Below, piece by piece: positions 30,870 through 31,168 of a stretch of 64,000 bases of DNA. A program made the translations under genes and the position numbers. The notes below the pieces were generated by a model that was given only the letters and a program-made list of their open reading frames with translations, had not been told where the DNA came from and ran no database searches. The first letter of the stretch is position 1. Every line of letters begins with the position of its first letter. The stretch is from Escherichia coli (lineage in GTDB: Bacteria > Pseudomonadota > Gammaproteobacteria > Enterobacterales > Enterobacteriaceae). The stretch lies in the NCBI RefSeq assembly GCF_024223415.1, contig NZ_CP100500.1, one strand, 5' to 3'.

Positions 30870-30945
30870 TGGAGCGGGAAACGAGACTCGAACTCGCGAC
30901 CCCGACCTTGGCAAGGTCGTGCTCTACCAACTGAGCTATTCCCGC
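30870..30945 (-). tRNA. glyY: tRNA-Gly (anticodon GCC), copy 1 of 3
   Basis: reverse complement reads GCGGGAATAGCTCAGTTGGTAGAGCACGACCTTGCCAAGGTCGGGGTCGCGAGTTCGAGTCTCGTTTCCCGCTCCA; cloverleaf with GCC anticodon and encoded CCA. Confidence 0.93.
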
Positions 30946-30980
30946 TTGGGTGGTCTGTGCCTTACAGCACTTTCAAATTT

Positions 30981-31056
30981 TGGAGCGGGAAACGAGACTC
31001 GAACTCGCGACCCCGACCTTGGCAAGGTCGTGCTCTACCAACTGAGCTATTCCCGC
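30981..31056 (-). tRNA. glyX: tRNA-Gly (anticodon GCC), copy 2 of 3
   Basis: identical 76-nt tRNA sequence repeated 111 bp from copy 1. Confidence 0.93.
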
Positions 31057-31092
31057 TTGGGTGGTCTGTGCTTTGCAGCACTTTTCAAATTT

Positions 31093-31168
31093 TGGAGCGG
31101 GAAACGAGACTCGAACTCGCGACCCCGACCTTGGCAAGGTCGTGCTCTACCAACTGAGCTATTCCCGC
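31093..31168 (-). tRNA. glyV: tRNA-Gly (anticodon GCC), copy 3 of 3
   Basis: identical 76-nt tRNA sequence, 112 bp from copy 2; assignment of V/X/Y names to copies is by position only. Confidence 0.93.

Follow-up and report, generated by a model that had tools for sequence, protein, structure and literature searches.

The glyV-glyX-glyY operon of three identical tRNA-Gly(GCC) genes upstream of datA in Escherichia coli: anatomy, genomic setting and copy-number variation

Three tRNA-Gly(GCC) genes, all on the minus strand, were identified by ARAGORN in a stretch of 64,000 nucleotides of Escherichia coli DNA (contig NZ_CP100500.1 of NCBI RefSeq assembly GCF_024223415.1), which is referred to below as the window. 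The sole other tRNA gene in the window is a tRNA-Phe gene at 60297-60372. The array consists of the following elements:

31093-31168, minus strand: glyV, promoter-proximal tRNA-Gly(GCC) gene, 76 nt with encoded CCA (ARAGORN, Rfam, syntenic E. coli annotation)
31057-31092, minus strand: spacer 1, 36 nt, consisting of AAAUUUGAAAA, the hairpin GUGCU-GCAA-AGCAC (31068-31081) and AGACCACCCAA (sequence, fold)
30981-31056, minus strand: glyX, middle tRNA-Gly(GCC) gene, same sequence as glyV (ARAGORN, Rfam, sequence)
30946-30980, minus strand: spacer 2, 35 nt, consisting of AAAUUUGAAA, the hairpin GUGCU-GUAA-GGCAC (30957-30970) and AGACCACCCAA (sequence, fold)
30870-30945, minus strand: glyY, distal tRNA-Gly(GCC) gene, same sequence as glyV and glyX (ARAGORN, Rfam, sequence)

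The three 76-nt sequences are identical, with the CCA encoded in each. Every copy scores 69.1 bits against the Rfam tRNA model RF00005 (gathering score 29) and fits the cloverleaf, and the anticodon, called by ARAGORN as gcc at position 34 in all three, can be read in the Rfam alignment too. The bacterial GlyRS identity set comprises G1:C72, C2:G71, G3:C70, the discriminator U73, C35 and C36, and all of these elements are carried by the tRNA sequence (GCGGGAA...UUCCCGC-U-CCA, anticodon GCC). A sequence-only reading of this DNA had proposed three perfect 76-nt copies of tRNA-Gly(GCC), and its coordinates proved exact by both ARAGORN and Rfam. It left the strand unstated; the array runs on the minus strand, which makes 31093-31168 the promoter-proximal copy. 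Its description of near-identical spacers of about 35 bp with a period of 111 to 112 bp likewise agrees with the measured spacers of 36 and 35 nt, which give periods of 112 and 111 and differ from each other at three positions (one A indel and two substitutions). Tandem Repeats Finder reports the same structure at 30868-31168 as a repeat with a period of 111, 2.7 copies and 98% matches. A Rfam match to the Y RNA-like YrlA family, which spans glyX and glyY (30893-31031, minus strand), reached 40 bits where the gathering score is 69; we discount it, since the tRNA-like part of that model most likely explains the match.

The array has orn on one side and queG on the other, with datA immediately downstream of it, and the order orn, three tRNA-Gly genes, datA/yjeV and queG is complete, with the reading frames of orn, queG and yjeV confirmed in the window. 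A 1.5-kb query around the array found matches in 5,425 of 5,426 complete E. coli genomes, and in matching records the genes annotated beneath the query match are orn, tRNA-Gly in three copies, an ORF of 17 codons and queG. On a larger scale, positions 1 to 60,486 of the window align collinearly with E. coli F9792 (identity about 99%), in a run of genes that includes ulaE, hfq, mutL, queG, the array, orn, frd, ampC, groESL and aspA and extends to tRNA-Phe. We therefore read the array as the chromosomal glyV-glyX-glyY operon of E. coli, in which three identical tRNA-Gly3 (GCC) genes are transcribed as one tricistronic precursor, and put the probability of this reading at about 97%. The gene identity, the synteny, the sequence anatomy and the copy-number variation are demonstrated here; the operon itself, its processing by RNase E and its link to datA are already known and published. 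The operon has been mapped since the first surveys of E. coli tRNA genes and is a standard RNase E substrate.

Comparison with the operon of strain K-12 (94.7 min, from orn to queG/datA) revealed the same gene sequence, number and order, the same spacers of 36 and 35 nt and the same flanking genes; the downstream DnaA boxes, the IHF site and yjeV match the window as well, and no difference was found inside the operon. It is for K-12 that the literature documents transcription of the operon and its processing by RNase E. The array together with its flanks (419 bp) is 100% identical to that of laboratory and O157:H7 strains, whereas the intergenic DNA that flanks it differs by about 2% from that of most E. 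coli strains and is 99.9% identical to F9792. The fourth tRNA-Gly(GCC) gene of the species, glyW, encodes an identical 76-nt tRNA, but it is present as a single copy in a mixed operon elsewhere (pgsA-glyW-cysT-leuZ), outside the window. In the chromosome record of strain OHT76-1, the best match to the 1.5-kb query was glyW only. Among records labelled as plasmids, array matches occur at nine places with the 1.5-kb query, with one full 419-bp match and one of the ERIC type. Other E. coli operons, such as valV-valW and leuQ-leuP-leuV, likewise consist of identical tRNA genes in tandem with short spacers, are transcribed polycistronically and are separated by endonucleases; operons of this type are reportedly separated mainly by RNase P, whereas cleavage by RNase E is documented for glyV-glyX-glyY.

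Upstream of glyV, a promoter and a leader can be read from the sequence:

31261-31274, minus strand: A/T tract AAAAAAAATTTTTT, UP-element-like (sequence)
31248-31253, minus strand: -35 element TTGCAG, followed by a 16-nt spacer (sequence)
31226-31231, minus strand: -10 element TATAAT, perfect (sequence)
31217-31225, minus strand: GC-rich discriminator GCGCCTCCC (sequence)
31217-31274, minus strand: predicted glyV-glyX-glyY promoter as a whole, between glyV and the orn stop codon (31379; read from sequence)
31169-31216, minus strand: putative 5' leader of the precursor (from the promoter position)

This set of elements (perfect -10, 16-nt spacing, GC-rich discriminator, A/T tract further upstream) corresponds to the rrn-P1 design, which is tied to growth-rate and stringent control. 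The glyV-glyX-glyY promoter would thus belong to this class, and such control would be the likely consequence. A scan for consensus promoters and terminators called no sigma-70 site at the operon, because the -35 element matches the consensus at only three of six positions, and it also missed the terminator. Our promoter call is accordingly a reading by eye, combined with the published RT-qPCR data (PMC10950094); Kasho and colleagues reported a strong promoter between orn and glyV, using RT-qPCR and northern blots (PMC10950094).

The other end of the operon leads directly into datA, the DnaA-inactivating locus, and comprises the following features:

30811-30858, minus strand: terminator/attenuator hairpin, then a U-tract (GGUUUUUGUUG; precursor fold)
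30843-30851: datA DnaA box 1 ATATCCACA, inside the terminator hairpin (pattern scan)
30776-30784, minus strand: DnaA box TTATCCACA (pattern scan)
30707-30719, plus strand: IHF consensus site TATCAATAGGTTA (pattern scan)
30614-30622, minus strand: DnaA box TTATTCACA (pattern scan)
30602-30610, plus strand: DnaA box TCATCCACA (pattern scan)
30602-30784, no strand assigned: datA core, downstream of the operon (pattern scans, annotation, published datA architecture)
30583-30636, minus strand: yjeV, a 17-codon ORF that overlaps the low end of the datA core (translation, annotation)

The glyV-glyX-glyY terminator is reported to overlap DnaA box 1, to be leaky and to act as an attenuator, and read-through from the glyV-glyX-glyY promoter reaches the datA IHF site and regulates the binding of IHF there (PMC10950094). 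On this published basis, the leaky terminator after glyY would let transcription pass into datA, where it would help to time IHF binding and thereby the hydrolysis of DnaA-ATP.

Folding of the precursor gave a z score of -5.2, with a hairpin in each of the two spacers in both the MFE and the centroid structure. The loops of the E. coli spacer hairpins are of the GNRA type, and only 8 of 1000 shuffled sequences fold as well as the hairpin of spacer 1. RNase E cuts the glyV-glyX-glyY precursor efficiently in vitro, with a major site 1 nt 3' of glyY, and this cleavage requires a single-stranded spacer between glyX and glyY together with the upstream glyX tRNA (PMC4191395; PMC9841416). In the pathway we envisage, RNase E would cut the precursor in the AU-rich single-stranded stretches directly after each encoded CCA. 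By analogy with the general pathway of tRNA maturation, RNase P would then remove the 5' leader and the CACCCAA leaders ahead of each tRNA, and exonucleases would probably trim the 3' ends back to the CCA.

The spacers of other Enterobacteriaceae, among the matches listed, keep AAAUUUGA after the CCA and CACCCAA ahead of the next tRNA. As AAAUUUGA is an AU-rich single-stranded segment immediately 3' of the CCA, it may serve as an entry or cleavage site for RNase E. Between these two ends the stem of the hairpin varies in sequence and keeps its pairing: it reads GUGCU/AGCAC in E. coli, GUAUC/GAUAC in Enterobacter, GGCC/GGCC in Mangrovibacter, UGCC/GGCA in Siccibacter and UGGCU/AGCCA in both Cedecea and Enterobacter sp. 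Ag1. This covariation was read from individually folded spacers; MAFFT had shifted the hairpins of Cedecea and Enterobacter sp. Ag1 by one column in its alignment. In shuffle tests on single sequences, between 4 and 300 of 1000 shuffles fold as well as the respective spacer, which amounts to moderate significance only. The Pluralibacter spacers, which are 23 nt long, formed no hairpin when folded individually. The hairpin may position RNase E or protect processing intermediates, and the folds suggest that it could be a conserved but dispensable processing module.

A scan for two adjacent copies, with one genome per species, returned at least 120 loci in Gamma- and Betaproteobacteria, and the arrays among the matches listed have 2 to 7 copies. 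Directly downstream of orn, the tRNA of the array (with 0 to 4 mismatches) was found in Enterobacterales, Pasteurellales, Aeromonas and Idiomarina. Citrobacter, Enterobacter, Cedecea and Mangrovibacter are among the genera with three copies, and Aeromonas has up to seven copies among the matches listed. The orn-linked arrays of other Gammaproteobacteria range from 2 to 7 copies, and outside Enterobacteriaceae their spacers are unrelated to those of the E. coli array. Given that orn-adjacent arrays are present in all of these lineages, the linkage of orn and the tRNA-Gly array is ancient, and its copy number is fluid.

A DnaA box resembling TTATCCACA directly follows the last tRNA-Gly gene in Citrobacter, Enterobacter, Cedecea, Mangrovibacter, Shimwellia, Pluralibacter, Siccibacter and Mixta among the matches listed, in which its occurrence after the last copy is restricted to Enterobacteriaceae and Mixta. 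The box was absent in the examined loci of Pantoea, Erwinia, Photorhabdus, Edwardsiella, Haemophilus and Aeromonas. Its conservation after the last copy in other genera suggests that the coupling of the tRNA-Gly operon with datA is older than E. coli, and this coupling may constrain the array. The combined proposal, i.e. that the spacers are conserved processing modules and not filler and that the coupling with datA predates E. coli and maybe constrains the array, is offered as a tentative one, with the odds somewhat against it.

The sequence-only reading had also held that the array is prone to copy-number change by unequal recombination, and had called for a comparison across strains. Copy number was surveyed in the 5,426 complete E. 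coli genomes. Synthetic two-copy and four-copy queries at the default E-value did not separate the copy-number classes, because overlapping pieces of alignment were joined; the searches were therefore repeated with E-value thresholds that a full-length alignment passes and a partial one does not, which separated the classes cleanly:

Canonical three-copy array with both flanks (419 bp): 3,688 of 5,426 genomes (68.0%)
121-bp insert between spacer 1 and glyX: 1,606 of 5,426 genomes (29.6%), with copy number checked in 26 genomes listed or fetched (three tRNAs in 26 of 26)
Two copies: 81 of 5,426 genomes (1.5%)
One copy: 15 of 5,426 genomes (0.28%)
Four or more copies: 18 of 5,426 genomes, 17 of them natural, with up to five copies
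None of these classes: 18 of 5,426 genomes

Arrays with one, two, four and five copies thus exist as predicted, and three copies are strongly predominant (about 98% of the genomes, against about 2% with other numbers), with the reservation that mis-assembly of the 111-bp tandem repeat could account for some of the rare variants. Annotation confirms examples with one copy (MC1061), two copies (STEC384) and five copies (UTAK-1). The BL21(DE3) record CP081489 was rejected as a variant with at least four copies: its match lies in a mixed-tRNA cluster elsewhere, only three tRNA-Gly genes are annotated, and the cluster looks engineered.

The structure of the variants points to the mechanism by which they arose. 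Two-copy arrays span 387 or 388 bp, which means that either type of spacer (35 or 36 nt) can survive, and the five-copy array of UTAK-1 has spacers of 36, 36, 36 and 35 nt, which means that the unit with the 36-nt spacer was duplicated. This spacer content is what unequal crossing-over between the 76-nt repeats predicts, and we infer that the variant arrays fit unequal crossing-over or replication slippage between these identical repeats. O157:H7 genomes are present among the two-, three- and four-copy classes, which suggests that the events are recent and recurrent. The clear predominance of three copies in turn suggests that variants are removed or revert. Duplication of the tRNA-Gly set has been reported under ciprofloxacin stress (PMC8811037), in qualitative agreement with our survey. 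In such a scenario, gene conversion and unequal crossing-over would keep the copies identical and would occasionally yield arrays of one, two, four or five copies.

The tRNA-Gly3 (GCC) isoacceptor reads GGC and GGU. In the 33 long ORFs of the window, GGC and GGT make up 81% of the glycine codons, which fits a gene-dosage rationale for several copies; the triplication would then supply gene dosage for the most-used glycine codons.

The 121-bp insert, found just upstream of glyX in 30% of E. coli strains and lacking in the window, is exemplified by the locus fetched from E. coli RM14721 (2880-3036). Full-length relatives with 60-80% identity occur elsewhere in E. coli genomes that have no insert at this position. 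We call the insert ERIC-like because its core GAATCCTTGGGAACTTACAAAAGTATGTGACTAAGGTGAGTG resembles what we take to be the ERIC consensus, judged by the ERIC primer sequences. Citrobacter youngae carries a homologous insert at the equivalent position of a spacer, before the third copy instead of the second, which suggests either an old insertion that was moved by rearrangement of the array or repeated insertion at the same site.

The same comparative data bear on the other explanations of the array. That the three genes stem from a recent, strain-specific duplication or from an assembly artefact, either of which can generate identical tandem copies, is very improbable, given that 3,688 independent complete genomes share one and the same 419-bp sequence of array and flanks and that Citrobacter, Enterobacter, Cedecea and Mangrovibacter, among other genera, have three copies as well. 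A CRISPR-like repeat-spacer array, or another array of non-tRNA repeats, deserves still less credit. The regular periodicity of 111-112 bp and the short spacers between the repeats do resemble such an array, but the repeats are complete 76-nt tRNAs with 69 bits against the tRNA model, far from the repeats of about 23-55 bp that define such arrays, the spacers are near-identical instead of unique (they differ at three positions), and the neighbours orn, queG, nnr, tsaE and rsgA are housekeeping genes with no cas gene among them. No CRISPR family of Rfam gave a match, and the resemblance is superficial, as the sequence-only reading had cautioned. Partial tRNA duplications left behind by the integration of a mobile element (repeats of the attL/attR type) have an equally negligible probability: tRNA genes are common integration sites and an integrase lies beside tRNA-Phe in the same window, but the three copies are full-length and identical, with 35-36 nt from one to the next and without any integrase or island sequence among or next to them. 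No truncated copies flanking foreign DNA were seen, and about 98% of E. coli genomes, as well as other genera, share the arrangement.

Two other loci in the window were recorded. The tRNA-Phe gene (pheU, 60297-60372, plus strand) is followed by an intact P4-type tyrosine integrase of 420 aa (60570-61832, plus strand) with the domains Arm-DNA-bind_3, Phage_int_M and Phage_integrase, and then by an IS-type transposase ORF with an rve domain (62098-63003, minus strand). Collinearity with F9792 ends at 60486, where that strain has only an integrase pseudogene, and the region 60297-63003 has the appearance of a boundary of a genomic island that integrated at pheU. A Guanidine-II (mini-ykkC) riboswitch, a known element, precedes the gene of the SMR transporter sugE/gdx at 46116-46162 on the minus strand, with a score of 50.4 bits (gathering score 32).

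As a discovery, the glyV-glyX-glyY operon carries little weight, and its value in this window is that of context. Mildly new are only the copy-number spectrum in figures, the share of genomes with the ERIC-like insertion in the operon and the covarying spacer hairpin. The array is, as already published, both a source of tRNA and the transcriptional driver of the replication-control element datA, and read-through into datA links the transcription of tRNA genes to the control of replication initiation.
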